The notes: generated by a model from the letters alone, not told the origin. A stretch of 54,652 nucleotides of DNA from an uncultured Clostridia bacterium (GCA_947627475.1 CANQWE010000001.1:73069-127720), one strand, 5' to 3'; positions 977 to 54,652 are shown, counted from the stretch's first letter. Program-made: numbers and translations.

Positions 977-1007
977 CTTTTGTAAGGGAGAGATACGGCG
1001 GACACCC

Positions 1008-1088
1008 CCCCAGTGTCTCGAAGCGACTCTGGAGGAGTCGCCTCGCGTGCCACATCACAGGGGAGCCAAAATATGTGTATGCGCTTTG
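1008..1088 (+). repeat. 81-bp dispersed repeat, copy 1 (copy 2 at 29919-29999)
   Basis: Gapless manual alignment to 29919-29999, about 69/81 identical. Confidence 0.85.
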
Positions 1089-4601: not shown

Positions 4602-4635
4602 AAATATGTATTATAAACTTGGAGGTAAAATCCAG

Positions 4636-6996
4636 ATGAAAAAGCTTATTTCATTGCTGGTTGTGGCAGCAATGCTTGTTGCCGGAATAGTGGTCGTTGT
4701 TCCGGGAACAGCCGCTGATCTTCCTGATACAGATCTTTATACCCATGTTACCGGAGAGATCAGTGAAGACAAAAGCACACTGACTATGACAGTGGAGTTG
4801 GGAAACAACCCTGGCCTATGGTGCTATAGAACCTTTGTCAGCTACAATGCTGAGGCGCTGAAGCTCACGTCCATCGAAAATAAAGACGTGTGGTCGGCAC
4901 AGGAATATATTCCTGGCAATATCAACTCTAATCCTGTGACATATTATGCACAGTCAACGGCCTATAATCTCAACAATACCAATAACGGTGTTGTTGCTGT
5001 TTACACGTTCCAGATTCTTAACCAGGAAGCAGATTTTAACGTAAAGTTGTCTGTAAACGCAAATGAGGTCTTTGGTGTAACGGAGGACGGTACTAAGATT
5101 CCGCATACCATGCAGATCATCAACGAGTGTCCCCAGTATCTTCCTATTGACACAACCGAGTTGGATCAATTGGCTGCTGACGTGTTGGCGCTGCCCGCAT
5201 ATGAGGAACTGACAGAAGAGCAGATTACAAGCATGCTGGGTTATTATGAAAAAATTCATGGACTCCAGGGAAGAGAACAGGCTTATTTTACAGAGAGCCA
5301 TGCAGACGCTATTACGAAAATTGACGAACTCTATGCCGCACATCAGTGGGCTGAAGAAAAAGAGCAGCTGGATGCACTGGGCGCAAGAGTAGAAGCGCTT
5401 CCTGCATATGCAGAGATGAGCGATGAGCAGGTGCAGGAAATGCTTGCACTGCGTACAGAGCTTTCTGCATTGGAAGGCGATGCAAAAACTTATGTAGAAA
5501 CTACATATGCAGATGCAATTGCACGTTTGGAGGCTTCCTACGAAGCATTTATGCATGAGGAAGGTTTGAACGCATACGGAGAAAAACTGGCTGCGCTGCC
5601 TGCCTTTGAACAGATGAGCGAAGCACAGGTAGCAGAAATGTTGTCTTTGAAGGACGAGCTGGCCGCGCTGCCTGCCGAAGATTTGGACTATGTAAAAGCT
5701 ACGTTTGCAGAGGACTATGCAAGATTTGAAGCTTCTTTGGCTGCTTATGCCCATGCGGAAGAGCTGAAGGCTGTAGGCGAAAAGATAGAAGCACTTCCTG
5801 CATATGACGGGATGAGCGAAGCACAGGTAGCAGAAATGTTGTCTCTGATCGAACAGCTGAATGCTATGCCTGAAGCAGATGTAAACTACATTAAAGAAAA
5901 CTATAGCGAAGCCTACAACAGACTCCAGGATTCCTATGCAAGATATACCCGTGTTCAGGAATTGGATGCACTGGGTGCAAGAATCAACGCGCTGCCCGAA
6001 AACTACGCTGACATGACAGAAGAGCAGATTGCAGAAATGCTGGCTTTGGTAGAAGCCCTGGATGCAATCACAGATACAGCAGACCAGGAATATCTGATGA
6101 ACAATTATGCAGATGGCCTCACAAACCTGGAAATAAACTATATGCTTTATCTGTATGATATACAGGTAAAGGATATTATTGCTCGTATCGAAGCCCTGCC
6201 TGACTATAAAGTAATCACCGAGGAGTATAAGGAAGAAGTAACGGAATTGTATGTACTGGTGATGGGCAGTCTTGCTGCGCCTCAGATCAAAGCAGAGATT
6301 CCCGAGGCTTACGCAAACTTTGTAAACGCTTACTTTAAGCTGGTTTACGGCGGTACAGATGCGGTGGATATGGATAAAGTAAATTCCTTTGTGGAAACTG
6401 CAAATGGACTGATTGCATCGGAAGAATTGACGGATGAACAAAAGGAACAGATTCTGGATTTGCTGTATTCTATTGTATCGATGGAAGAAGACCAGATGAT
6501 CAATGTAGATTATATTGCACTCAATAATCCTGAAACTTTTATAGGTTTGATTGAAAAATACATTGAAATTATCAGCAGCGAAGAAGTCGATGAAGAACTT
6601 TTGATCAGCCTGACCGAAAAGGTAATGGGACTGCCTGCATATGAAGATATGACAGCAGAAGATATTGCTGCGCTGGAAGAAATCATTGATGCAATTTCTA
6701 ACTTGAATCCTGTAGAAATGTTCCAGTTTAAAGTATTAAGTCAAGAGGCATATGAAAAGTATCTTGCTCTGTATGAAGCTTATATGGCAGACAAGGGCGG
6801 TGAGGAGCCGCAGCCCCCTGTGACGACAGACACTGCCGGGGATGATACAACCGTTTCTGGCGGCAACAACGGTTCTGGAGATAAGAAGCCTCCCCAGACC
6901 GGCGACAATATGATGTATATTTTTATTGCGGCAGCTGTTGCAGCTGTAGCATGCACAGCAGTTGTTGTGATCCGCAAGAAAAAGGAAACTGTATAA
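4636..6996 (+). CDS. Sortase-anchored surface protein: N-terminal cohesin-like domain, about eight helical repeats, PPQTG sorting signal
   Basis: Signal peptide; cohesin-like segment (TLTMTVELGNNPGL...VSYNAEALKLTSI...NGVVAVYTFQIL); ~66-aa acidic repeats (ALPAYxEMSEEQVxEML); P/T/G linker; PPQTGD, hydrophobic helix, RKKK tail. Confidence 0.75.
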   Translation: MKKLISLLVVAAMLVAGIVVVVPGTAADLPDTDLYTHVTGEISEDKSTLTMTVELGNNPGLWCYRTFVSYNAEALKLTSIENKDVWSAQEYIPGNINSNPVTYYAQSTAYNLNNTNNGVVAVYTFQILNQEADFNVKLSVNANEVFGVTEDGTKIPHTMQIINECPQYLPIDTTELDQLAADVLALPAYEELTEEQITSMLGYYEKIHGLQGREQAYFTESHADAITKIDELYAAHQWAEEKEQLDALGARVEALPAYAEMSDEQVQEMLALRTELSALEGDAKTYVETTYADAIARLEASYEAFMHEEGLNAYGEKLAALPAFEQMSEAQVAEMLSLKDELAALPAEDLDYVKATFAEDYARFEASLAAYAHAEELKAVGEKIEALPAYDGMSEAQVAEMLSLIEQLNAMPEADVNYIKENYSEAYNRLQDSYARYTRVQELDALGARINALPENYADMTEEQIAEMLALVEALDAITDTADQEYLMNNYADGLTNLEINYMLYLYDIQVKDIIARIEALPDYKVITEEYKEEVTELYVLVMGSLAAPQIKAEIPEAYANFVNAYFKLVYGGTDAVDMDKVNSFVETANGLIASEELTDEQKEQILDLLYSIVSMEEDQMINVDYIALNNPETFIGLIEKYIEIISSEEVDEELLISLTEKVMGLPAYEDMTAEDIAALEEIIDAISNLNPVEMFQFKVLSQEAYEKYLALYEAYMADKGGEEPQPPVTTDTAGDDTTVSGGNNGSGDKKPPQTGDNMMYIFIAAAVAAVACTAVVVIRKKKETV
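5158..6790 (+). repeat. Intragenic ~198-nt tandem repeats encoding the helical stalk
   Basis: 34-nt exact repeat GATGAGCGAAGCACAGGTAGCAGAAATGTTGTCT at 5613 and 5811 (198 nt apart); protein motif recurs about 8 times. Confidence 0.8.
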
Positions 6997-7148: not shown

Positions 7149-8393
7149 ATGGTTCAAACAGTAATAGAAAAGCTGCAAAAAGCGGATCCGGAAGTTGGAG
7201 ATGCGATTGCTGCAGAACTGCAACGGGAAAAGAGAGGTCTGGAACTGATCGCCAGTGAAAATATGATTTCAGAAGCAGTAATGCTTGCTATGGCAACCCC
7301 ACCTGCAAATAAATATGCAGAGGGATACCCTGGCCGCAGATATTACGGCGGATGTGAATGTGTGGATGTAATCGAAACCATCGCCATACAGCGTGCGTGC
7401 AAGCTTTTTGGTGCAAATTTTGCAAATGTACAGCCCCACTCCGGCGCCCAGGCGAACACAGCAGTCTATATGGCGCTTCTTTCTCACGGGGACACAGTCA
7501 TGGGCATGAACTTGGCCCACGGCGGACATCTGACCCATGGAAGTCCTGTAAACTTCTCCGGTATAAACTACAACTTTGTTCCCTACGGCGTGGATGAGAA
7601 CGGATTTATCGATTACGATATTATGGAGAACACTGCAAAAGAATGCAGACCCAAGCTGATTATCGCAGGCGCGTCAGCATATGCCAGAACCATCGATTTT
7701 GAACGGATTTCCAAGATTGCTAAGAGCGTGGGCGCCTTGTTCATGGTGGACATGGCTCACATTGCCGGCCTTGTTGCAGCCGGACTCCATCCCTCGCCAA
7801 TTCCCTATGCAGACGTAGTTACCACAACTACCCATAAAACCCTTCGCGGTCCCAGGGGCGGCATGATCCTTTGCAACGATGAAGAAATTGCAAAGAAAAT
7901 CAATAAAGCGGTATTTCCCGGCATGCAGGGCGGGCCACTGGAGCATATCATCGCCGCAAAGGCGGTTTGCTTTGGAGAAGCCCTGGACCCCTCCTTTAAG
8001 GAATACCAGAAAAAAATCGTGGAAAATGCAAAAGCCCTGGCGGAAGGTCTCCTGGCGGAAGGCTTTGATCTGGTATCCGGCGGAACGGACAATCATTTGA
8101 TGCTGGTGGATCTGCGTCCCATGCATATCACCGGTAAGGAAATGGAACAGCGACTGGATCAGGTATATATCACAGTCAATAAAAACTCCATTCCAAACGA
8201 CCCCGAAAAGCCCTTTGTCACCAGCGGTATCCGGGTGGGTACCCCGGCGGTGACGACACGCGGCCTTGGCGTATCCGAAATGAAAACACTGGCAGAGCTC
8301 ATGGCTCTGGCCGCAAAAGACTTTGACGCCAAAGCAGATTCTATTCGGGACGCTGTTACACAAATTTGTAAAAAGTATCCGATTTATGAATAA
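7149..8393 (+). CDS. glyA: Serine hydroxymethyltransferase
   Basis: [26 protein letters not shown]-lysine motif [14 protein letters not shown]. Confidence 0.98.
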
Positions 8394-26734: not shown

Positions 26735-29293
26735 ATGAAAAAAGCTGCAATTTTCATTGCATTATTGCTTATATTGACCAGTCTGATCCCCGCAGCTGCC
26801 GGAGCAGCCGCGGCGCCGGAGCGTACGGAAGCGTTTATTCCCCAATCCAGTGCGTATTTGGGGCATCCTGATTTTGCGCCCCTTGCGGTTTTGGCAGACG
26901 GATCTTTTTCTATAGGCGAGGATACGATCCATTTTGGCTATACCACGAAAATTGCACAAATTTATCGAAGTGAACCGTATCCTTCCACAGTGCATACGTT
27001 TTCTGATGGAAAGCTTCTCTATACGGTGCAGCTATTCGTCAGCCCTTTGTCTCTGGAGGAGGGAACGTGTCTGGTGTTATATGCCCGCCTCGCCACTGAA
27101 AACATTGCAGAGGAAAACGTGCCGTTTCCCACTGTATCGGACAGTCTGATTTCTTTGACGCAGGAGCCCGGTGAAGTTTCTCCTGGGAGTAAGGCTGTCT
27201 GTGACTTTGCAGTGGTTGTGGACGCGGAAGTGGAGTCGCTGCCTGCAGCAACACCAGAGCAGCTGGGGACCTTTGACGACAGCATGCAGGCCATGGAGGC
27301 GTATTGGGATACACAGCTTGCCGGCAGCTTTTCCTTTACAGAGATGCCGGAGGAAGCGGAAAATTTGGACCTTTCTCTGCAAACAGGATATATCGATCTG
27401 CTCTGCGGAATTTCTGGGGACAGCTGCGGAGACTATGCTTCTCTACTGCAAAAGCCCCCGGCGGATTTGTCTTCTATGACCTGTTTTGATACGGCGCTCT
27501 ACTTTATAAAAACGGGAGATACGGCCCTTCTTGATTCCAAATGGGAGGAACTCCAGAGCCGATACGAAGCTTTTTGCAGTGCAATAAAAACTTATACTTT
27601 TACGGCGGCAGGACAGGAAGAGACCGTGCATCTGCTGCCCGGTACCGATGCAGAATCAGCCTTGGCAGACAATTTGGACGCGTTGACTCAGCTGAAGGCT
27701 TTTGCATATTTGTGCCGTGCAAGGGACCCTGAAAGAGAGGTTGCGGTACAGACTGCTTATCAAAATCTGCTTTCCTCCGTGGAAACTACAATGCGCAATA
27801 CGGTATCTTACTGCACATCCCACTGGTCCGCTACAACTTTAAAAGGGGATCTTTCGGCGGGAATCTTTCCTTTATCTGCAAACAGCAGCGCTGCCGCTGC
27901 TGTTGAATGGTACAAAAAAGACGCTGTATTTGCTGCGCCGGGAGGCGGTACATACCTGAAACGGCTTGCACGTCAGCAGCTTCCCTATATAGATCAATCA
28001 GATTCTATTGATGCAGTGGTATATCAGCTGGAGGATGAAACCATTATACTTGGACAGGGAATTTCCGGCGCCTGGCTTCGTCAGGGGGAAACGCTTTCTT
28101 TTGAAAACTATCCGCTTGCGGGCGGCGGTAAGCTGGACTGTACCATTACCAGCGAGAAAGATGAGATCCAAGTCCAGTTGTCTCCTACTACGCCCACGGC
28201 AGCTTCCCTGGAGTTACCTGTTTTTTTGAATAATATAGAATATGCCTCCTGCGGATTTGATTCGGAAAACGGAATTGTCAGCGTTCCCGCGGGGATAACT
28301 GAGATTACAGTGCATCTTGAACAAAGCGTTGAGGAAGTTGTAAAGGCGCATCAGAATGAGCGTGGGCTGGAAATGGCCATTGCCGCTTATGAGGGAATAA
28401 ATTTAGATGTATATACAAGGTATTCCGTTTCCTTGTTTGAACCTGCATTGGAGGACGCCAAAGCCGCCCGTACCGGGCCGGCGTCGGATATGCACAACGC
28501 TGCGGCCCAGCTAAATAAGGCGGGGAAAATGCTGTCCCCCATCCAGTCTGGTTATGCATTGACTATGGCCCAGGAGAGCGACCGGCTGCCAAATACGCTG
28601 AAAGCAGAAAAAATTTGCCAGACCTTTTCTACCGCCGGTGCCGGTACACTGTCAGAAATATGGGTGACAGGGACATATACTGAGGGGATTACTGCCGCTC
28701 TTTACAGTCTGCAAAAGGACGGATATTCCCCGGGGGAACTGCTGGCGGAGGCCAAAGGCGTACAAGCAGATGGGGGCATTCTATTTGAGTTTTCCGCAGA
28801 TTTGGAGGCGGATGCCGGATACTTGCTGATTCTGTATGCACAGGCCGGAGAGGTGGAGCTGCCTGTATATCAGAAAACACAGGACGTACAGCTTTTGTAT
28901 GGACAGCAGGGGCAAAACAGCACAGCGTATGATCTTACCTGTATCGGTGTGACCATCCGGGTTACCCAGGCCAATTTGGAAGACTTGGATACCTTTTTGG
29001 AAAAGTGCGTCAGTGCGGACATTTCTTCCTATACAAAAGAATCCCGCAATCGTCTGGAGGAGGAAATGCAGGATGCAAAGGATGTTCTGTGTACCCAGTC
29101 TGTTTCAGAGGATGTATACCGATCTGTCTATAATGATTTAAAGGACGCTTATGCGTCGCTTGCTACCTATCCTTCTGACGATCCGGTTGAAGATACGCCA
29201 CCCGCCTTGTACATTGTGCTGGGTATTGCTGTGGCTTTGCTGATTGCCGGCGGGGTCGGCGCGGTAGCGTCTTATAAAAAGCGGGAATGGTAG
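26735..29293 (+). CDS. Large exported, C-terminally membrane-anchored protein with two FIVAR-like helical modules
   Basis: Signal peptide; YTRYSVSLFEPALEDAKA and YTKESRNRLEEEMQDAK repeats; C-terminal TM helix plus KKR. Confidence 0.65.
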   Translation: MKKAAIFIALLLILTSLIPAAAGAAAAPERTEAFIPQSSAYLGHPDFAPLAVLADGSFSIGEDTIHFGYTTKIAQIYRSEPYPSTVHTFSDGKLLYTVQLFVSPLSLEEGTCLVLYARLATENIAEENVPFPTVSDSLISLTQEPGEVSPGSKAVCDFAVVVDAEVESLPAATPEQLGTFDDSMQAMEAYWDTQLAGSFSFTEMPEEAENLDLSLQTGYIDLLCGISGDSCGDYASLLQKPPADLSSMTCFDTALYFIKTGDTALLDSKWEELQSRYEAFCSAIKTYTFTAAGQEETVHLLPGTDAESALADNLDALTQLKAFAYLCRARDPEREVAVQTAYQNLLSSVETTMRNTVSYCTSHWSATTLKGDLSAGIFPLSANSSAAAAVEWYKKDAVFAAPGGGTYLKRLARQQLPYIDQSDSIDAVVYQLEDETIILGQGISGAWLRQGETLSFENYPLAGGGKLDCTITSEKDEIQVQLSPTTPTAASLELPVFLNNIEYASCGFDSENGIVSVPAGITEITVHLEQSVEEVVKAHQNERGLEMAIAAYEGINLDVYTRYSVSLFEPALEDAKAARTGPASDMHNAAAQLNKAGKMLSPIQSGYALTMAQESDRLPNTLKAEKICQTFSTAGAGTLSEIWVTGTYTEGITAALYSLQKDGYSPGELLAEAKGVQADGGILFEFSADLEADAGYLLILYAQAGEVELPVYQKTQDVQLLYGQQGQNSTAYDLTCIGVTIRVTQANLEDLDTFLEKCVSADISSYTKESRNRLEEEMQDAKDVLCTQSVSEDVYRSVYNDLKDAYASLATYPSDDPVEDTPPALYIVLGIAVALLIAGGVGAVASYKKREW

Positions 29294-29300
29294 GGTATGG

Positions 29301-29329
29301 AAAAAGAGGGGTAAAGCCCCTCTTTTTTT
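29301..29329 (+). terminator. Terminator, AAGAGGGG family copy 2
   Basis: AAAAAGAGGGGT-aaa-GCCCCTCTTTTTTT. Confidence 0.8.
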
Positions 29330-29430
29330 GATGCCCCCAGGGAGGGAAAAACTCCTTTTGCCGCACCCGGCAAAAGGAGTATTTGCTTTCCGATACGGGA
29401 AAAATAGCATGAAGACTTCTGTTTCGGGGG

Positions 29431-29692
29431 TAGAAAAGAATTTGTTTCTTTCCAAAAGAAAGGAAGAATGTTCCTTTTCCAAGGGAAAAAGAAAAGGACG
29501 TTCCTTTTGTGATGTGACAAAAGGAACCAAAAACACAGAAAAGGGAAGGGGGATTCCCCTTCCCTTTTCAAACCCAACCCCTTTGACAAGTGCGGGCAAA
29601 GCAAACTTTTTGGTATGCACTGGGCTTGCAGAAACTGCAAGATGTATGTAAAACAAAAAGAAATAGAACAGAAAAGCAGAGACAAATAAAAT
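29431..29692. repeat. Structured intergenic module X, copy 1 (copy 2 at 43921-44178)
   Basis: Colinear similarity over ~260 bp, including the identical hairpin GAAAAGGGAAGGGG-gatt-CCCCTTCCCTTTTC, plus GGTATGCACTGG and GACAAATAAAAT. Confidence 0.85.
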
Positions 29693-29745
29693 ATGCAGAG
29701 ATATTATAAGCTTCCAAGGCGGTGTCAGCAAAGCCTCATTCCATT

Positions 29746-30027
29746 AAGCCCCCCTTTTTTAAAGGGGGGAAGTCAGCGTAGCTGACGGGGGGATTGTTAG
29801 GAATACAATCCATTTCCCGCTGCAGCAAGATGGAAGGAAACAACCCCTCAGTCGGCGCTGCCGCCAGCTCCCCTTAACAAGGGGAGCCATATAGTTTGAG
29901 CGTGCTCTGCCCACAGCACCCCAACGTCTCAAAGCGACTCTGGAGGAGTTTCCTCGCGTGCCGCATCACAGGGGAGCCATATTGTTTGTATGTGCTGTGT
30001 CGACAGCTTTCCTTTCTAAGGGGAGCT
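29746..30027. repeat. Cluster of REP-like units (one inverted, three tandem)
   Basis: GCCCCCC..GGGGGG-GTCAGCGTAGCTGAC, then three units ending in AGGGGAGC; GGGGAGCCATAT recurs at 29881 and 29971. Confidence 0.75.
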
Positions 30028-30039
30028 GAATAGATGCAA

Positions 30040-30305
30040 GCCCCCATAGAAGTTGCTACCGAGGGCGACGGGGGCTTACAAAGTCTGTACAAACTTTGCG
30101 TAAGGTGGATAGCCAAGGCAAGCCATTGCAGGGCCTGCAATAGTGCTGGGGTCAGACATCTGGGTACAGACTGAAAGTCAGTACCAAACAAGCGCGATAG
30201 CAAAGCCGAGGTCCGTGGGGCGCACTTTTGGTGTACTTTGTGCAGCAAAGTACCATTTTCCTGCGCTGAGGAAAAGTACCATTCGTTCCCTGCTTTCAAA
30301 AGCAG
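30040..30305. repeat. Structured intergenic module Y, copy 1 (copy 2 at ~43661-43922)
   Basis: Shared CAAACTTT, TGCAGG..CTGCAA, ATAGCAAAGCCG and ACTTTTGGTGTACTTTGTGCAG(C)AAAGTACCATT. Confidence 0.8.
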
Positions 30306-30365
30306 AAACTCCCCCGCGAGAGCGAACGAGAGCACATCTCTCTCGCTCCCATGTAGCGCGGAGCG

Positions 30366-31313
30366 TTAATAAAACGTAGCGACAGCCGGATCCGGTGCTG
30401 ACGCAGGTTCTACCTTTTGTGCCAGCAGCACCGGACCTTCTCCTGCATACACTTTGTGATTTTTTACCTGAATTTCCCCGGTCACCGTGATCCAATCATA
30501 ATTTTTATAGTCGTCGCTTCTGCCCCACTTACAGATCATAGCGCTGAACTGGATATCCTCTGCACAACAGATCATCACGTGACGGCCTGCAAACATCCAG
30601 CCGGTACCCAGGCTTTTCTCCTTTGCCACCATGGCCTTAAACTGCACGGTTTTGCCATGATACGCAGACAGATTTTCGCACAGATCCCGGTAAAAAATGG
30701 CGTAGTCTCTGTCCTCGATCACAACGATGGGGGCCTCCATGTCGTAGGGCAGAGGATCTTCTATATCATCGTAGGTGGTCTCACCATTTACGTTTTCATA
30801 TATAATAGACGCCATCCGAGAAAGACCCCGTACGATTTTGTGCAGCTCTGTACAATCTGCGCCCACCGCCGTGCGGTTGAAGATGATCATATCGGCGCTT
30901 TGGATCTTGTCCACTACCAGACTGCGCATGTTTTGATTGTAGGCGGAAAATGTGGTAGAGTCAAAAAATAGGATCTGCTGGCCGATGATCCAGTGCTCCG
31001 GCGCCGCTTCATATAAATCGGACATCTGCCACATACCGTTGTATTCTACCAGAATTTTGGTAGCGTCATGCTTTTTCTGTAAACGGATCAGCACCTCCGG
31101 AGACAGGTCCTCAGGCGAATCGATTTCTTCCAGGCATACGTCCGTCCCGGCAAATTCTGTGGGATCCAATTCTACCTCTCCCGTTTCACACAGCAGTACC
31201 AGGATCCGCTCTCCCTCACAAAACCGTTTGTCCATAAGGGTTTCCCTTATAAACGTTGTTTTTCCTGATTCCAGAAAGCCTGTTACCAGGTAGACAGGTG
31301 TATCTTGCATCAC
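30366..31313 (-). CDS. CobW/COG0523-like GTPase with C-terminal TIGR03943-like domain
   Basis: TGFLESGKTT, VEYNGMW, IFNR; C-terminal GRHVMICCAED. Confidence 0.8.
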   Translation of the reverse strand: MMQDTPVYLVTGFLESGKTTFIRETLMDKRFCEGERILVLLCETGEVELDPTEFAGTDVCLEEIDSPEDLSPEVLIRLQKKHDATKILVEYNGMWQMSDLYEAAPEHWIIGQQILFFDSTTFSAYNQNMRSLVVDKIQSADMIIFNRTAVGADCTELHKIVRGLSRMASIIYENVNGETTYDDIEDPLPYDMEAPIVVIEDRDYAIFYRDLCENLSAYHGKTVQFKAMVAKEKSLGTGWMFAGRHVMICCAEDIQFSAMICKWGRSDDYKNYDWITVTGEIQVKNHKVYAGEGPVLLAQKVEPASAPDPAVATFY

Positions 31314-42019: not shown

Positions 42020-42704
42020 ATGCCGCAATTTGAGCAAAAGCTACGGACAAAGCGATTTGGCGCTGAATAACTTCAGCATTGCACTGCCCAGGGGAAAAGT
42101 GATTGGATTGCTGGGCCCCAATGGAAGCGGCAAAACCACTCTGATCAAGCTGATCGCCGGACTTCTGACGCCTACATCCGGAGAATTGCTTGTAAACGGT
42201 ATGCCCATAGGCGTAGAAACCAAACGGATCGTATCCTATCTGCCGGAACGCACATATTTTGATCCTGGTATGCAAGTGGAGGAAACCATTCGGTATTTTG
42301 CAGACTTTTACATGGATTTTAACGCAGAAAAGGCCCGAGCAATGCTGGAGGATTTGGGCGTAGACACAAATAAAAAAATGAAAGCGCTGTCCAAAGGCAC
42401 CAAGGAGAAGGTCCAGCTTGTGCTGGTCATGTCCAGAGACGCCCAGCTGTATCTTCTGGACGAACCTATCGGCGGTGTGGACCCCGCCACAAGGGACTAT
42501 ATTTTGAACACAATCGTGTCTAACTACAATCCGGATTCTACTGTGCTCATTTCCACGCACCTGATCTCCGATGTGGAAAAAGTGCTGGATGAATTTATGT
42601 TCATCCACAATGGGGCCCTGGTAATGTACAACTCTGCAGACAACGTCCGGGAAGAGCTGGGCAAAGGAATTGACGAACTGTTTCGGGAGGTTTTCAGATG
42701 CTGA
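42000..42704 (+). CDS. ABC transporter ATP-binding protein
   Basis: GPNGSGKTT, LSKG, LLDEP, STH. Confidence 0.95.
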   Translation: MNLPILECRNLSKSYGQSDLALNNFSIALPRGKVIGLLGPNGSGKTTLIKLIAGLLTPTSGELLVNGMPIGVETKRIVSYLPERTYFDPGMQVEETIRYFADFYMDFNAEKARAMLEDLGVDTNKKMKALSKGTKEKVQLVLVMSRDAQLYLLDEPIGGVDPATRDYILNTIVSNYNPDSTVLISTHLISDVEKVLDEFMFIHNGALVMYNSADNVREELGKGIDELFREVFRC

Positions 42705-43558
42705 AGAAATTATTTCGCTACGATATGAAGTACACTGCCAGATTGGTGCTGCCGCTGATGCTGCTGACACTGGGTACTACGGTTTTGGGCAGTGTTGCAA
42801 TGAAGATGCTGGGCAGCCTGGAATACAGCGACTTCAGCCAGACCTTCGGCGCTACCCTGCTGCGGATTGTGCTGGGGCTGATTGTGGCAGGTACCTGTTT
42901 TATCCTTGTTGCCTTTGCAATTATCACCTCCATCGTTGTGTTTATGCGGTTTTATAAACACTTTTTCTCCGACGAAGGATATCTGACGCACACGCTGCCG
43001 GTAAAGACCTCTACCCACATGTTTTCTAAAACATGGTCGACCCTTTTGTGGATCGTCATCACCACAGTCGCCACTCTATTCTTTATCTTTCTTTATATTT
43101 TAATTGGTACAGCCCCCCATGGGTCACTGCTAAACACAGAAGCCTTTCGGGCAGTAGGGGAATTTTTCCAGGGCATCTTCCCCTATATGACACCGTCATA
43201 CTGGATCATAGGGCTTGAAACTTTGCTTCTCACGCTGGTCTCCGTCGTTTTTTCCACATTTATGATTTTTACGGCGATAACCATTGGAGCTGTGGTCGCA
43301 AAGAAGCACAAAATTTTGGCGGCAATCGGATTTTACTATCTGATCAACATGATTATATCCATTGTTACCGTGCTTGTTTTTGTTCTTGTAACGCTATCAA
43401 CAGTGGGCAACACTATGCTTACCGGTTCGCTGCTACACAGTCCGGAAGGTTCTACACACTTTCTGCTGATTTTTGCAATTTTGCTTTATTCAGGGCTGTC
43501 CGCTGGCGGGTTTGCCTTGTGTAATCATTTTTTAAAGAAAAAATTAAATTTATCATGA
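42698..43558 (+). CDS. ABC transporter permease
   Basis: About six hydrophobic helices; EGYLTHTLPV motif; overlaps the ATPase gene. Confidence 0.85.
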   Translation: MLKKLFRYDMKYTARLVLPLMLLTLGTTVLGSVAMKMLGSLEYSDFSQTFGATLLRIVLGLIVAGTCFILVAFAIITSIVVFMRFYKHFFSDEGYLTHTLPVKTSTHMFSKTWSTLLWIVITTVATLFFIFLYILIGTAPHGSLLNTEAFRAVGEFFQGIFPYMTPSYWIIGLETLLLTLVSVVFSTFMIFTAITIGAVVAKKHKILAAIGFYYLINMIISIVTVLVFVLVTLSTVGNTMLTGSLLHSPEGSTHFLLIFAILLYSGLSAGGFALCNHFLKKKLNLS

Positions 43559-43559
43559 G

Positions 43560-43584
43560 AAAAAGAGGGGCTCAGCCCCTCTTT
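43560..43584 (+). terminator. Terminator, AAGAGGGG family copy 4
   Basis: AAAGAGGGGC-tca-GCCCCTCTTT. Confidence 0.75.
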
Positions 43585-43660
43585 ATTTGAGCTGATCCCA
43601 AGACAGGTGGCGTGCGTCTCCCCCCACTCGGGAAAGCCGTGCTCCCTTGCATTACGCAAG

Positions 43661-43922
43661 GCGCCTCTGGCGAGCCGCGGCGTAAAATGCCCAGGGGGCA
43701 AAAAAGTTTGAGCAAACTTTCGCGTAAAGCGGGTCGGCAAAGCAAGGCCCTGCAGGATCTGCAAAAGTACTGAAGTCGTGCAGACCGGAGCAGAGTGACA
43801 GTCCGCAGAAAACAAACGCCATAGCAAAGCCGGGGACCACGGATCGCAGGGCGATCCGAGAGCGTACTTTTGGTGTACTTTGTGCAGAAAGTACCATTCG
43901 TTTCCCTTGATTCGAGAAGCAG
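43661..43922. repeat. Structured intergenic module Y, copy 2
   Basis: Colinear with 30040-30305; has an extra hairpin CGGATCGC-agg-GCGATCCG. Confidence 0.8.
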
Positions 43923-44178
43923 GGAAGAACCTACTTCTTTCTAAGAGGAAGGAAAGAATATTTCTTTCCCAAGGGAAAAAGAGAAGGACGTTCCTCTTCC
44001 ATGTGGAAAAGGAACCAAAAGACAGAAAAGGGAAGGGGGATTCCCCTTCCCTTTTCGATCCCTTTCCCTTTGACAGCAAGGTGGGGACAAACTTTCCGGT
44101 ATGCACTGGATTAGCAGCATCTGCAGGATATGTAGAAAACAAAAAGATATAGAAATATAAAGCAGGGACAAATAAAAT
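43921..44178. repeat. Structured intergenic module X, copy 2
   Basis: Colinear with 29431-29692. Confidence 0.85.
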
Positions 44179-44263
44179 CTTTATGGCATCCAGCTGCAGT
44201 GTTTCGCGAAAACTTTGCAAGCCCCCACTGAGGCATTTCGTGAACGGCGTCAGAGGGAGTATA

Positions 44264-45697
44264 TTAAACAGTCAGCTCTGCACCGTCTCCCATAGAAGCG
44301 CGGTTCTTTTCTAACAGAGCATCGATGGTTTCAACAAAAGTACAAACCTGTTCTGCGCTGCGCCCGGTATAATGTTCCGGCTGAAGCTGGGCTTCGATTT
44401 CTTCTTTGGTCAAAGGGAAAAGAGGATCTGCCTCGATTCGCTGAATTAGATCGTGCCGCTTCCCGTATTTCTTCACCTGCTCTGCGCTGGCAATGGAGTG
44501 GACCCGAATGCGTTCGTGAAGCTCCTGCCGGTCCCCCCCCCGTTTTACTGCTTCCATCATAATGTTTTCGCTGGCCATATAGGGCAGGTTGTCCATCACT
44601 CTGGAACGGATCACCATAGGATTGACCACGATTCCCTGGGAGATGTTGATATAAATATTCAGAATGGCATCTACCGCAAGAAAAGCTTCCGCCATGGAAA
44701 TACGCTTGTTGGCACTGTCGTCCAGGGTGCGTTCAAACCACTGGGTACCGGCGGTGATGGCGGGATTGAGAGAATCAGTGATCACATAGCGGGCCAGAGA
44801 TGCAATCCGTTCACTGCGCATGGGATTGCGCTTGTAAGGCATGGCGGAGGATCCGATCTGATGCTTTTCAAAGGGCTCCTCCATTTCCATAAAGGACTGG
44901 GCGATCCGCATGTCCCCGGAAAATTTATATGCAGACTGCGCGATACCGGATAGAACGGACATGACCCGGCTGTCGTGCTTTCTGGTGTAGGTTTGGCCGC
45001 TGACAGGTACGCATCCTGCAAAGCCGAACTTTGCGGCAATATATGCTTCTGCCCGTGCAACCTTTTCACTGTCCCCGTCAAAGAGCTCCAAAAAGCTCGC
45101 CTGGGTGCCGGTGGTTCCCTTGGAGCCCAGCAGAAGCAATCCATTTGCCACGTAATCCAGATCCTCCAAATCCAACATCAGATCATAAAGCCACAGGGTG
45201 GCGCGCTTGCCCACCGTGGTCAGCTGAGCGGGCTGGAGATGCGTATATGCCAGGGCAGGCATGTCCCGGTATTCCATAGCAAAATTCCGCAGGTTCTGCA
45301 TCACCCGCAGCAGCTTGCCCCGCACCAGCTCCAGCGCTTTTTTCATGATGATCATGTCGGTATTGTCTCCTACATAGCAGGAGGTGGCTCCCAGATGGAT
45401 GATGGGCCGCGCGCCGGGAATCTGATCCCCCCAGGCATGGATATGGGCCATTACATCGTGCCGCAGCTTTTTCTCATAAGCGGCGGCAGCTTCGTAGTCC
45501 ACGTCCTTTTCATGGGCTCGCATCTGGGCAAGCTGTTCATCTGTGATGTCCAGTCCCTCCTGCTGCTCCGCTTCGGCTAAGGCGATCCACAACGCTCGCC
45601 AGGTGGTAAATTTCATGTCGGCAGAAAAAAGATACTGCATCTCCGCGCTGGCATATCTTGTGGAAAAGGGGCTTTCATAGTTTTTGTTACTGTTCAT
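44264..45697 (-). CDS. purB: Adenylosuccinate lyase
   Basis: RHDVMAH, TSCYVGDN, THLQPAQ, GSSAMPYKRNPMRSE. Confidence 0.96.
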   Translation of the reverse strand: MNSNKNYESPFSTRYASAEMQYLFSADMKFTTWRALWIALAEAEQQEGLDITDEQLAQMRAHEKDVDYEAAAAYEKKLRHDVMAHIHAWGDQIPGARPIIHLGATSCYVGDNTDMIIMKKALELVRGKLLRVMQNLRNFAMEYRDMPALAYTHLQPAQLTTVGKRATLWLYDLMLDLEDLDYVANGLLLLGSKGTTGTQASFLELFDGDSEKVARAEAYIAAKFGFAGCVPVSGQTYTRKHDSRVMSVLSGIAQSAYKFSGDMRIAQSFMEMEEPFEKHQIGSSAMPYKRNPMRSERIASLARYVITDSLNPAITAGTQWFERTLDDSANKRISMAEAFLAVDAILNIYINISQGIVVNPMVIRSRVMDNLPYMASENIMMEAVKRGGDRQELHERIRVHSIASAEQVKKYGKRHDLIQRIEADPLFPLTKEEIEAQLQPEHYTGRSAEQVCTFVETIDALLEKNRASMGDGAELTV

Positions 45698-46079: not shown

Positions 46080-46619
46080 GTGAAGGATACAAATAAAAGA
46101 GAGGAGCAGCGCAGTTTGGCAGACCGTCTGCGGGAAGCCAGGGAAAAGGCGGGACTATCCCAGCAAGAGCTGGCGCAGCGGCTGGAGGTATCGCCGGAGA
46201 TCTATGCTGCTTGGGAAGCGGGGACACAGTCGCCAGACACAGAGACTGTACGACGGGCTGCGTCTGCTTTGCATGTTACCGGCAATTATCTGTTGTTTGG
46301 CTTGTCCCGTGAGGGAATGGTAGGGGCTATGTTTCCCAACAAGGCCACGCCAGCTGTGCTTCCCGGATGGTACGGCTGCAGGATGGCAGGCGTGGCGCTG
46401 CTGTTTTGCGGCGGCGCGGGCATGCTTCTGCTGGCATTTTTGGATCGTGGCAGGGAAGGTGCAGGCGCGACGCTGCTGTCCTATCTTCCGTTCCAGATTT
46501 TTTTGGCAATATATACTGTGGGCGTAGCTTTATGTACGATATCCGCAGTTTTGCACAGCAGAGATAAGAAAAAGAAGCGTGTGAAGGAGCAGGACCATGA
46601 AAGAGAAAAGGGCAAATGA
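46080..46619 (+). CDS. XRE-family HTH protein with two C-terminal TM helices
   Basis: RLREAREKAGLSQQELAQRLEVS...WEAG...P; two hydrophobic segments. Confidence 0.8.
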   Translation: MKDTNKREEQRSLADRLREAREKAGLSQQELAQRLEVSPEIYAAWEAGTQSPDTETVRRAASALHVTGNYLLFGLSREGMVGAMFPNKATPAVLPGWYGCRMAGVALLFCGGAGMLLLAFLDRGREGAGATLLSYLPFQIFLAIYTVGVALCTISAVLHSRDKKKKRVKEQDHEREKGK

Positions 46620-48000
46620 AGCCGGCTTGAAAAAGGGGATGACGAAAAAAAGCATTTGGATTACCGTGATTCTTTCTGCCGTGGTTTTGCTTATTGCTGG
46701 CAGTGCTGTACTCATATTTTTGCTTACAAGGGATAAGGAGGTGCCGGACGGGCAGAACGCAGACGGCGCATCTCTTGTGCTGGAGAATCAGAAATGGGAG
46801 GACTTTCTTTATTCTGTGTACGATGACGGCACAGCTACGCTTACTGGTTACACGGGAGATGACAAAGTGGTAGAAGTCCCGGCAGAAATCGAAGGGCATA
46901 CAGTGAATACCATTGGAATTGGGTGTTTTAATGTAGGGGAAGAATGTCCTATGGAAGAAATTTTGCTTCCGGATACGATCAAGCGGTTTGAGGCACATTC
47001 GTTTGGTAATGCCAAAAATTTAAAACGGATTGCCATTCCACAGGGAACTACAGAAATTGAACTTGGAACATTTGTATATTGCTCTTCCCTAGAGGAAGTA
47101 AGCATTCCCGATACGGTTACAGAGATTGGAGAAGGGGCATTTTCCTTCTGCTCTGCGCTGGAAGGGATAGAGCTGCCGCCAAATCTGAAGACAGTGGGAG
47201 ACAGCGCGTTTTATATGTGCAAGGCACTGAAAAGTATTGCGCTTCCAAAGGGAGTAATGTCCATTGGAGAAGGCGCTTTTGAAGGGTGCTATGCGTTAGA
47301 AGAAATCGATATGCCGGACACGGTGGAGCAGATCGGAGCAAATGCGTTCAATCTGTGCGAATCGCTGACAGAGGTCAAGATATCTGAAGGCGTCACGGTT
47401 ATCGAAGAGGCTACCTTCAACAACTGCCTGGCGCTGGAGAAGGTGATTCTGCCCTCCCGTTTGGAATCCATTGAAGCAGCAGCCTTTTACTACTGTGAAA
47501 AATTGGAGTCCATCCCTTTGCCGGACACCCTGAAAAGTATCGGCGAATATGCGTTCTGCCACTGTATCGCTTTGCCACAGATCGAGCTGCCGGATTCGGT
47601 AGAAACTTTGGATAAGTCTGTGTTTGCCGATTGTACTGGTCTGAAAAAGGCGACGCTTTCGGATTCTCTTACGTCTATACCGGATTATACTTTTGCTCAG
47701 TGTACCAGTTTGCGCAGTATTGTGCTGCCTAGGGGTATTCAAAGCATTGGTGTGTATGCCTTTGTAAGCTGCGGGGAGATTACGGAGCTTTCCATTCCCG
47801 ATGGGGTGACGCTGGTAGATGCGTATGCGTTTTCTGAGATGAACAAGCTTGCGTCTATCACTGTACCGGATACGGTGGAGCAGATCGGAGAAGGCATACT
47901 TGCTTATACAGAGCAGGTGACAGTGCACTGCAGGGAGGACAGCACGATACACGAGTACTGCAGCGCCAATGAGATCCCCGTATCAATCTTAGATGATTGA
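46597..48000 (+). CDS. Membrane-anchored BspA-family (LRR_5) leucine-rich-repeat surface protein
   Basis: N-terminal TM; about 13 repeats of IxLPxxVxxIGxxAFxxCxxL. Confidence 0.92.
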   Translation: MKEKRANEAGLKKGMTKKSIWITVILSAVVLLIAGSAVLIFLLTRDKEVPDGQNADGASLVLENQKWEDFLYSVYDDGTATLTGYTGDDKVVEVPAEIEGHTVNTIGIGCFNVGEECPMEEILLPDTIKRFEAHSFGNAKNLKRIAIPQGTTEIELGTFVYCSSLEEVSIPDTVTEIGEGAFSFCSALEGIELPPNLKTVGDSAFYMCKALKSIALPKGVMSIGEGAFEGCYALEEIDMPDTVEQIGANAFNLCESLTEVKISEGVTVIEEATFNNCLALEKVILPSRLESIEAAAFYYCEKLESIPLPDTLKSIGEYAFCHCIALPQIELPDSVETLDKSVFADCTGLKKATLSDSLTSIPDYTFAQCTSLRSIVLPRGIQSIGVYAFVSCGEITELSIPDGVTLVDAYAFSEMNKLASITVPDTVEQIGEGILAYTEQVTVHCREDSTIHEYCSANEIPVSILDD

Positions 48001-54589: not shown

Positions 54590-54652
54590 AAAGCCCCCTT
54601 GTGAAAGGAGAGCCTGTTGGCAGAGCCGACTGTGAGGGGTAGTTTGCTTCCA
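54590..54652 (-). repeat. REP-like element (inverted copy of 29831-29888)
   Basis: Reverse complement TGGAAGCAAACTACCCCTCACAGTCGGCTCTGCCAACAGGCTCTCCTTTCACAAGGGGGC resembles TGGAAGGAAACAACCCCTCAGTCGGCGCTGCCGCCAGCTCCCCTTAACAAGGGGAGC. Confidence 0.75.

Follow-up and report, generated by a model that had tools for sequence, protein, structure and literature searches.

The stretch of DNA analysed here, referred to as the window, comprises 54,652 nt (contig C1:73069-127720) of G000, a 2.13-Mb assembly of an uncultured gut Clostridia species that consists of 111 contigs and is 95.9% complete. Two blocks free of called genes were found in it. Block 1 (29294-30365) is flanked by genes at 26735-29293 on the plus strand and 30366-31313 on the minus strand, and block 2 (43559-44263) by genes at 42698-43558 on the plus strand and 44264-45697 on the minus strand. 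Gene calls were made using a crude codon-usage ORF scorer of our own, and confirmed the placement of both blocks between convergent genes that had been reported in a first-pass annotation of the window. Modules within the blocks were assigned using a repeat finder, BLASTN searches of the assembly with each block as query and, for every module, a two-round nhmmer search. The features are as follows.

29300-29331, plus strand: terminator hairpin T of the upstream 852-aa gene (repeat finder; similar copies at 26408-39 and 43559-90)
29337-29410, plus strand: module H, with a 13-bp-stem hairpin at 29351-29380 that is terminator-like on both strands; low copy, 4 kept hits
29438-29703, plus strand: module X, copy 1, a chain of hairpins around a near-invariant core
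29500-29527, 29528-29537 and 29538-29569: core of X copy 1, made of a hairpin, an A-rich linker and a 14-bp palindromic hairpin, respectively
29721-29797, plus strand: module P, a small REP-like palindromic unit
29830-29893, plus strand: module Q, a small REP-like palindromic unit
29908-29996, plus strand: module R, 16 kept hits genome-wide
30067-30311, plus strand: module Y, copy 1, a chain of about nine hairpins
43559-43590, plus strand: terminator hairpin T of the upstream 286-aa gene (repeat finder)
43694-43925, plus strand: module Y, copy 2
43927-44183, plus strand: module X, copy 2, with its central 14-bp hairpin at 44025-44056
44184-44263, no strand: unique spacer before the purB stop codon, with no second match in the genome by BLASTN
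998-1085, plus strand: solitary R module, directly 3' of the tRNA gene at 870-942
54595-54652, minus strand: Q module, at the point where both the window and contig C1 end

Block 1 reads T, H, X, P, Q, R and Y, followed by approximately 50 unique bases that precede the stop codon of the convergent cobW-like gene. Block 2 reads T, approximately 100 unique bases, Y and X, followed by the 80 unique bases that precede the purB stop codon. BLASTN and the repeat finder both bore out the earlier observation that two modules of ~250 bp are common to the two blocks, in the same orientation and in swapped order. The two X copies share 80.8% identity over 250 bp by BLASTN, with gapless blocks that are 80-86% identical, and the two Y copies share 69% over 207 bp by BLASTN, with gapless blocks of 130 nt at 70% and 29 nt at 93%. 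The segment of block 1 previously described as a REP cluster resolved into the three small repeat modules P, Q and R, of which P and Q resemble each other on opposite strands, and Q also occurs alone at ~25 loci and in congeners. The segment of block 2 previously described as a REP-like tail (44184-44263) had zero other copies in the genome by BLASTN.

The first-pass annotation had left room for the two blocks holding the only copies of these modules. BLASTN, nhmmer and the covariance models revealed dozens of further copies, well beyond what chance would yield, and the census amounted to ~100 module copies in the genome: approximately 44 copies of X and 54 of Y, spread over 63 arrays of the 2.13-Mb assembly. 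The six modules were found by nhmmer at 109 loci, and 63 arrays hold X or Y. Non-overlapping hits numbered 74 for Y, 58 for X, 37 for Q, 21 for P, 16 for R and 4 for H, and cover 31.6 kb, with X and Y together accounting for 26,902 bp or 1.3% of the assembly. Near full-length copies amounted to 36 for X and 44 for Y, and covariance models of the cores returned 37 X matches of at least 100 bits and 54 Y matches of at least 60 bits. All these copy counts are approximate because the assembly breaks inside the repeats, as seen by the 22 of 63 arrays that touch a contig end.

Within the arrays, X and Y are co-oriented and alternate head to tail (Y-X-Y-X) for up to 3.5 units, as exemplified by C44:3381-4741 (H-Y-X-Y-X-Y-X) and C2:72305-73469 (Y-X-Y-X-Y). 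Lone Y-X and lone X-Y arrays are about equally frequent, and 14 of the 63 arrays contain a single Y hit. The junction from Y to X is tight, the model hits overlapping by ~20 nt, and P, Q and R are confined within arrays to the junction from X to Y, where the order X-P-Q-(R)-Y was found at five loci. Therefore, the modules that had been described as reshuffled alternate regularly, and the swapped order in the two blocks is a difference in phase of one alternating array. Furthermore, a covariance model of the Y core aligned collinearly, hairpin for hairpin, to the reverse strand of X with scores of up to 43 bits, and matched the opposite strand of 30 of the 36 full X copies (E<=0.001). Applied to 31 further genomes of the genus, the model stayed without a match at this threshold in 28. 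Plain alignment of the reverse-complemented X consensus to Y was weak (score of 25 vs a shuffle maximum of 23), and the inverted likeness of X and Y in G000 is visible only by covariance model. Based on this model, we conclude that one ~250-bp unit exists as two diverged forms, X and Y, each inverted with respect to the other, and that the arrays consist of such units in alternating orientation.

The blocks contain open frames of 197, 153 and 231 aa on the minus strand. A coding reading of these long frames was rejected because variability by codon position is flat (X, 0.153/0.151/0.152; Y, 0.217/0.227/0.232), copy lengths are evenly spread over the three classes modulo 3, and arrays frequently contain open frames of 100-230 aa, on either strand and in any of the six frames. 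For the same reasons, the absence of a credible ORF from the two blocks, as annotated earlier, holds. Frames remain open because stop trinucleotides and their complements are depleted threefold in the arrays, with an observed/expected ratio of 0.36 vs 0.66 in other spacers. No open frame spans a long array, and the codon-usage scorer called no gene in any of them. The arrays fragment the genome bin and yield spurious open frames of 100-230 aa, and annotators should mask them.

A single Y-X unit folded better than its shuffles on both strands (z = -6.9 and -10.2). Owing to indels, RNAalifold detected no more than 2-3 helices when whole modules were aligned with MAFFT, and hand-set helices were used for the cores. 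The five helices of the Y core pair in 85.6% of cells, vs 32-43% for slid partners; changes on both sides affect 16 of the 40 pairs, and in 500 shuffles the observed value was never reached on four of five measures. In the X core, 96-97% of cells are paired in the two main helices; its covariation score, which was reached by 30 of 500 shuffles, is little informative because the core is too invariant. Stem mismatches were of the G-T vs A-C type in 83 vs 70 cases for X and 70 vs 106 cases for Y, and neither folding energy nor G-U counts favoured one strand. Among copies, the hairpins vary by a flipped loop or an optional inserted hairpin. This strand symmetry, the flipped loops and the optional hairpins are the signature of DNA palindromes or of elements that act on both strands, not of one strand-specific RNA, and the lack of strand asymmetry in pairing argues against a dedicated RNA. 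At the gathering threshold, Rfam identified only a tRNA in the window. A permissive search returned best sub-threshold matches of 24-27 bits against thresholds of 44-75, which we regard as noise; a likeness to PrrB/RsmZ (26.5 bits vs a threshold of 44) was judged compositional.

The centre of X is a perfect palindrome with a 14-bp stem, 8 pairs of which are G-C, and a 4-nt loop (29538-29569 and 44025-44056). A scan for terminators listed it as terminator-like: on the minus strand the hairpin is followed by a U-rich tail, and on the plus strand by a shorter run of T. Pairing of this helix is kept in 97% of cells, and among 34 copies the linker from which the tail is formed varies hardly or not at all. 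The X centre displays the anatomy of an intrinsic terminator, namely a G+C-rich stem, a short loop and a U-tract. Furthermore, among the 41 arrays for which both flanks are known, 17 lie in convergent, 21 in co-directional and 3 in divergent spacers. Convergent spacers house 41% of these arrays vs 11.5% of all spacers, the genome-wide shares being 76% for co-directional and 12% for divergent spacers (chi-square p ~1e-8). Orientation of the arrays was unbiased in co-directional spacers (13 vs 8, p=0.38), and an apparent excess of upstream genes that point the same way as the array (38 vs 15) proved to be mostly a by-product of convergent sites. It is reasonable to infer from anatomy and placement that the X core looks like a two-way intrinsic terminator, and the family probably supplies transcription stop signals. 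We found no consensus promoter at conserved positions of the modules.

The distribution of the family was assessed in searches that took in ~330 genomes. Apart from one 49-nt hairpin match, BLASTN of the Y-X unit came up empty in 24 congeners and in 16 genomes from elsewhere in the order. The nearest good genome, G041, belongs to a sister species whose gene order is almost collinear with that of G000, with ~80% DNA identity in genes. It contains one strong X match (118.6 bits), which is the sole content of a 265-bp convergent spacer, and one partial Y (55 bits) located 3' of jag and its terminator, a locus orthologous to an X-Y array in G000. Both are single modules at separate loci, and at the site of the G041 X, G000 has a Q-like unit instead. 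Another congener, G009, has a partial X match and a weak Y match, and the others have only weak hairpin-level X matches. This comparison shows that the family expanded ~fifty-fold in the G000 species.

Ten orthologous spacers measure 10-103 bp in G041 vs 336-1424 bp in G000. They share no residual similarity, so that no target duplication or clean empty site can be read and insertion is indistinguishable from replacement. The G041 counterparts of the genes around one of the arrays (G000 C38:3408-4544) are separated by only 10 bp, and a strong terminator at this site would be harmful unless the array is leaky or bears a promoter. Mean identity among copies in the genome is 78% for X and 68% for Y, and for 31 of 36 X copies and 37 of 44 Y copies the most similar copy is found on a different contig. 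Two loci whose flanks are unrelated share, at 98.5% identity, a stretch of 263 bp that corresponds exactly to X, indicating that copying of entire modules continues. At both blocks, the flank-to-repeat junctions are identical in contigs from 4 runs of 4 studies, and no empty-site joint was seen in these 4 conspecific metagenome runs; the joints that did turn up there belong to other array copies, which map to more than one place. Within the species as sampled, the arrays are therefore stable.

Beyond the genus, X-core matches at E<=1e-6 were found in 11 of 150 other genomes of the order. Genus g7, which belongs to another family, stood out with at least 15-20 X-core matches in each of 4 of its 6 genomes, among the best 21 candidates scored. 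In g7, the core is located in both arms of a foldback of 470-700 bp, the arms being 55-72 nt long and 79-93% complementary. An alignment of 39 rows was built from 23 full-length g7 sequences (51-62 bits), 12 from G000, the G041 copy and three lower-scoring ones. Four helices of the X core pair in 91.4% of its cells vs 47-62% when slid, and 31 of 40 pairs changed on both sides, in an alignment that was fitted to the model and is limited to two clades. Both lineages conserve the linker that separates the two main hairpins. The g7 foldbacks thus resemble module X in their homologous two-hairpin core with linker and compensatory stem changes, and resemble the X/Y arrays in being multi-copy, non-coding and located between gene ends. 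They differ in that g7 carries the core in both arms of a single foldback, with clear terminal inverted repeats as in MITEs, whereas in G000 the two arms appear to have diverged into X and Y and to have been chained into arrays.

Searches for mobilising enzymes supported the earlier statement that none lies nearby. Y1_Tnp, OrfB_IS605, RVT_1 and DDE_Tnp_1 had 0 matches in the whole G000 assembly, whereas control genomes responded; since the assembly breaks in repeats, transposase genes or insertion sequences could be unassembled. PF01797 (Y1_Tnp), which matched 6 of 14 known genomes used as a control, was found neither in G000 (95.9% complete) nor in any of five related carriers, namely G041 and four genomes of the other family. 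No parent insertion sequence with matching ends and a transposase was found among these four families. Two rve genes are present on contigs C13 and C18, both of which are devoid of arrays. Integron, CRISPR and group II intron readings were dropped on anatomy; among the genes expected of such systems, the reverse transcriptase (RVT_1) was searched for, with 0 matches.

Repeat density per contig ranged from 18% on C44, which carries dnaN, dnaA, parA/parB and serS, down to <3% on long contigs. Eight of the ten repeat-dense contigs placed on G041 (C46, C57, C62, C38, C50, C20, C44 and C41, the last one via the jag locus) fall in one region of ~175 kb (C2:269-362 kb and C8:0-81 kb) that holds dnaN, dnaA, parA/parB, jag, yidC and rnpA. 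The two remaining dense contigs, C36 and C33, map to G041 contig C1, as does the contig of the window. With 6.8% of the assembly, the eight contigs account for 32 of the 63 arrays, a count that is inflated by splits at contig ends. Neither GC skew nor the gene strand of the region predicted how the arrays are oriented. The concentration around replication-start genes is real, and both local copying and selection could produce it. A simple selfish-repeat model does not account for it.

Taken as a whole, these observations are best explained, in our view with good likelihood, if both blocks are arrays of one lineage-restricted, non-coding interspersed mosaic repeat family. Its building block is a ~250-bp chain of short hairpins existing in two inverted forms, X and Y, that alternate along the DNA, with the small REP-like units P, Q and R placed at the X-to-Y junction. 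Copying would act on DNA, by none of the searched transposase types, and would move whole modules into spacers after genes, often by extending arrays that already exist. The X centre, with an A-run on one side and a conserved U-tract on the other strand, would by its anatomy work as a two-way intrinsic terminator, and the arrays may be retained at the ends of genes as portable stop signals and as spacers. Outside this centre, the modules would most likely be kept as hairpins by DNA-level processes or weak selection rather than by a role as a dedicated RNA. Counting against this explanation, no orientation-dependent role is visible in co-directional spacers.

Several other explanations deserve consideration. 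The modules could be RNA genes, such as sRNAs ending at the X hairpin, or parts of one large structured RNA made of X and Y, as the first-pass annotation had proposed in its second reading. The far better folding of the Y-X unit than of its shuffles, the covariation of the hairpins, the maintenance of four X-core helices across two bacterial families despite changes on both sides of 31 of 40 pairs, and an alternation of U-G and U-A in two weaker X helices are consistent with such an RNA. We nevertheless find it unlikely: the modules form a plain chain of local hairpins with optional insertions and flipped loops, they reach the threshold of no Rfam family, neither wobble type is in excess and no strand is clearly more stable, and the cross-family alignment is model-fitted and limited to two clades. 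In addition, modules vary in number and order, arrays stand in either orientation relative to their neighbours, and they lack a conserved consensus promoter. We attach a similarly low probability to the arrays being DNA sites selected by the host near the replication origin, either for binding or loading of a nucleoid, segregation or topology protein, or as insulators between replication and transcription. BIMEs contain IHF and gyrase sites. The location of 8 of 10 placed dense contigs in one dnaA region, with 32 of 63 arrays on 6.8% of the assembly, the 18% repeat content of the dnaA contig, the near-invariance of the X core and the strand-symmetric pairing, as expected for double-stranded or cruciform DNA sites, all fit this idea. 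However, the sister species does without arrays at the same ten sites, C36 and C33 map elsewhere, orientation ignores GC skew and regional gene strand, and no candidate binding protein was found; moreover, clustering could result from local copying, and split arrays inflate the counts.

The main reading of the first-pass annotation, that X and Y are independently mobile non-autonomous elements accumulating at the same type of site, survives in part. They are non-autonomous, non-coding and accumulate at gene ends, whereas their being unrelated is contradicted by their relationship as inverted relatives. That X and Y are unrelated MITEs, each transposing on its own and sharing a site preference, would agree with the copying of X alone as a 263-bp block, with the single X and single Y at different G041 loci, and with the 14 of 63 arrays that hold a single Y. 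Yet it seems quite improbable given their strict alternation as inverted relatives, the tight Y-to-X junction and the restriction of P, Q and R to the X-to-Y junction, and since no parent transposase of the families searched was found; terminal inverted repeats were not recognised either, nor were target duplications in spacers that share no residual similarity with those of G041. Finally, the division of the metagenome bin into 111 contigs and the 22 of 63 arrays touching a contig end raise the question of an assembly artefact or chimera. The same gene-to-repeat junctions recur in 4 runs of 4 studies and many arrays lie inside contigs, flanked on either side by syntenic genes, which makes such an origin extremely improbable.

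Within the preferred explanation of a mosaic repeat family, we tentatively suggest, as a rather doubtful possibility, that the core of two hairpins and a linker is the recognition site of a non-RAYT copying activity, either an enzyme or host replication or repair, that would duplicate units of ~250 bp in alternating orientation and place them preferentially in gene-end spacers around the origin. If so, this would represent a new route of mobilisation for bacterial interspersed repeats, and origin-proximal arrays may be taken over for chromosome organisation. The burst is unusually clean and recent, with one of each module in the sister species vs about a hundred module copies in G000. Its occurrence without the searched transposase types, together with the concentration around dnaA, makes it a good natural case for RAYT-free repeat spread, and these two features and the structure of X and Y as inverted relatives make the family worth following up.

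In Proteobacteria and pneumococci, interspersed mosaic repeats have been well investigated. To our knowledge, they are barely described in uncultured gut Clostridia, which dominate many animal guts, and none of the papers listed by a full-text literature search described such a repeat family in Clostridia. The REP unit is a short imperfect palindrome of ~20-40 bp present in over 100 copies. Like REP/BIME elements (see PMC2817692), the X/Y arrays are extragenic and located at gene ends, form hairpins, consist of alternating units with two kinds of junction, and vary in length; both can act on transcription, as predicted in the case of the X/Y arrays. The two systems differ in that X/Y units are ~250-bp chains of 5-9 hairpins, ~seven times larger than the single ~35-bp palindromes of REP, and amount to ~100 module copies rather than hundreds. 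Furthermore, REP/BIME elements have a cognate RAYT/Y1 transposase whereas none was found in G000 or in five related carriers, and the host of X/Y is a Firmicute whereas those of REP/BIME are enterobacteria and pseudomonads. The alternating orientation of REP/BIME is thus shared by the X/Y family, and neither a single short palindrome in more than 100 copies nor a cognate RAYT was found. Because these two defining features are missing, the X/Y family is not a member of REP/BIME but a new family of a known kind, the bacterial interspersed mosaic repeat.

The BOX and SPRITE repeats of Streptococcus pneumoniae offer a second comparison, made by description and not by sequence, using part of Croucher et al. 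2011 (PMC3049150). According to that part, these repeats proliferated in one species, are sparse in its sister and nearly absent beyond, and turn over slowly; SPRITE is a terminator-like repeat enriched just 3' of coding sequences, and large BOX elements have open frames on both strands. BOX follows a fixed A-B(n)-C order of ~50-nt modules, whereas two inverted relatives of ~250 bp alternate here, and the clustering around dnaA seen for X/Y is not among the features reported for BOX/SPRITE in the part of PMC3049150 considered. Like X/Y, BOX/SPRITE as described there are composite modular repeats with permuted modules that underwent a species-restricted burst in a Firmicute genome of ~2 Mb.

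Comparison with G041, the nearest good genome, which belongs to a sister species, showed where arrays of the hairpin-chain modules X and Y have come to lie between genes of G000, the assembly that holds the window. One such site is on contig C38:

G000 C38:3408-4544 (locus L036/L057), array of 1.1 kb between two co-directional genes

In G041 the genes flanking this array are only 10 bp apart, and the array seems to have split an operon. Furthermore, the break between the end of contig C2 and the start of contig C8 in G041, an assembly that is otherwise near-complete, coincides exactly with the Y-X array at C38:11659-12394 of G000. G041 may likewise carry a repeat at this break, left unassembled. 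Two spacers of G000 (C46:5492-5829 and C44:15769-16177) measure 336-407 bp versus 29-46 bp in G041, and they contain none or one of the six defined modules; G000 holds more repeat or filler sequence beyond those catalogued.

Alignments A1 and A2 revealed that in some copies of X and Y the loop of a hairpin is reverse-complemented with its stems unaltered, as in the following rows:

X, flipped loops: L016, L026, L045 and L040
Y, flipped loops: L055, L011 and L025

Such inversions of the loop suggest that the palindromes have undergone events at the level of DNA. Stop trinucleotides and their complements are also about 3-fold rarer than expected across the X and Y copies (observed/expected ratio of 0.36, compared to 0.66 for other spacers). 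As a consequence, each of the six reading frames can contain open frames of at least 100 aa, and the minus strand of X is wholly open in 26 of 36 copies. These open frames are non-coding.

Small palindromic modules were also found outside the arrays, including a solitary copy of R detected by a repeat finder and nhmmer:

window 998-1085, R module, directly 3' of a tRNA gene (870-942)

This copy shares 84% identity over 87 nt with the R copy at 29913-29999. Downstream of purB, the REP-like units P and Q, often several at one place, were observed in four congeners (G021, G002, G044 and G003; L076, L078, L079 and L080, respectively). Since these genomes carry P and Q without X and Y, the P/Q units are older and spread across the genus.

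Repeats of other kinds occur within genes of the window. The gene of a 796-aa LPXTG-anchored surface protein (4606-6996) contains three 198-bp tandem repeats at 5366-5847, and the gene at 46597-48000 encodes BspA-type leucine-rich repeats.

Finally, a perfect 16-bp palindrome common to both species (G000 C44:~7245-7270; G041 C8:~42340-42362) directly borders, on the left side, the X-Y array that G000 carries at C44:7270. It looks like a parS-type site, for which we consider it a candidate only.
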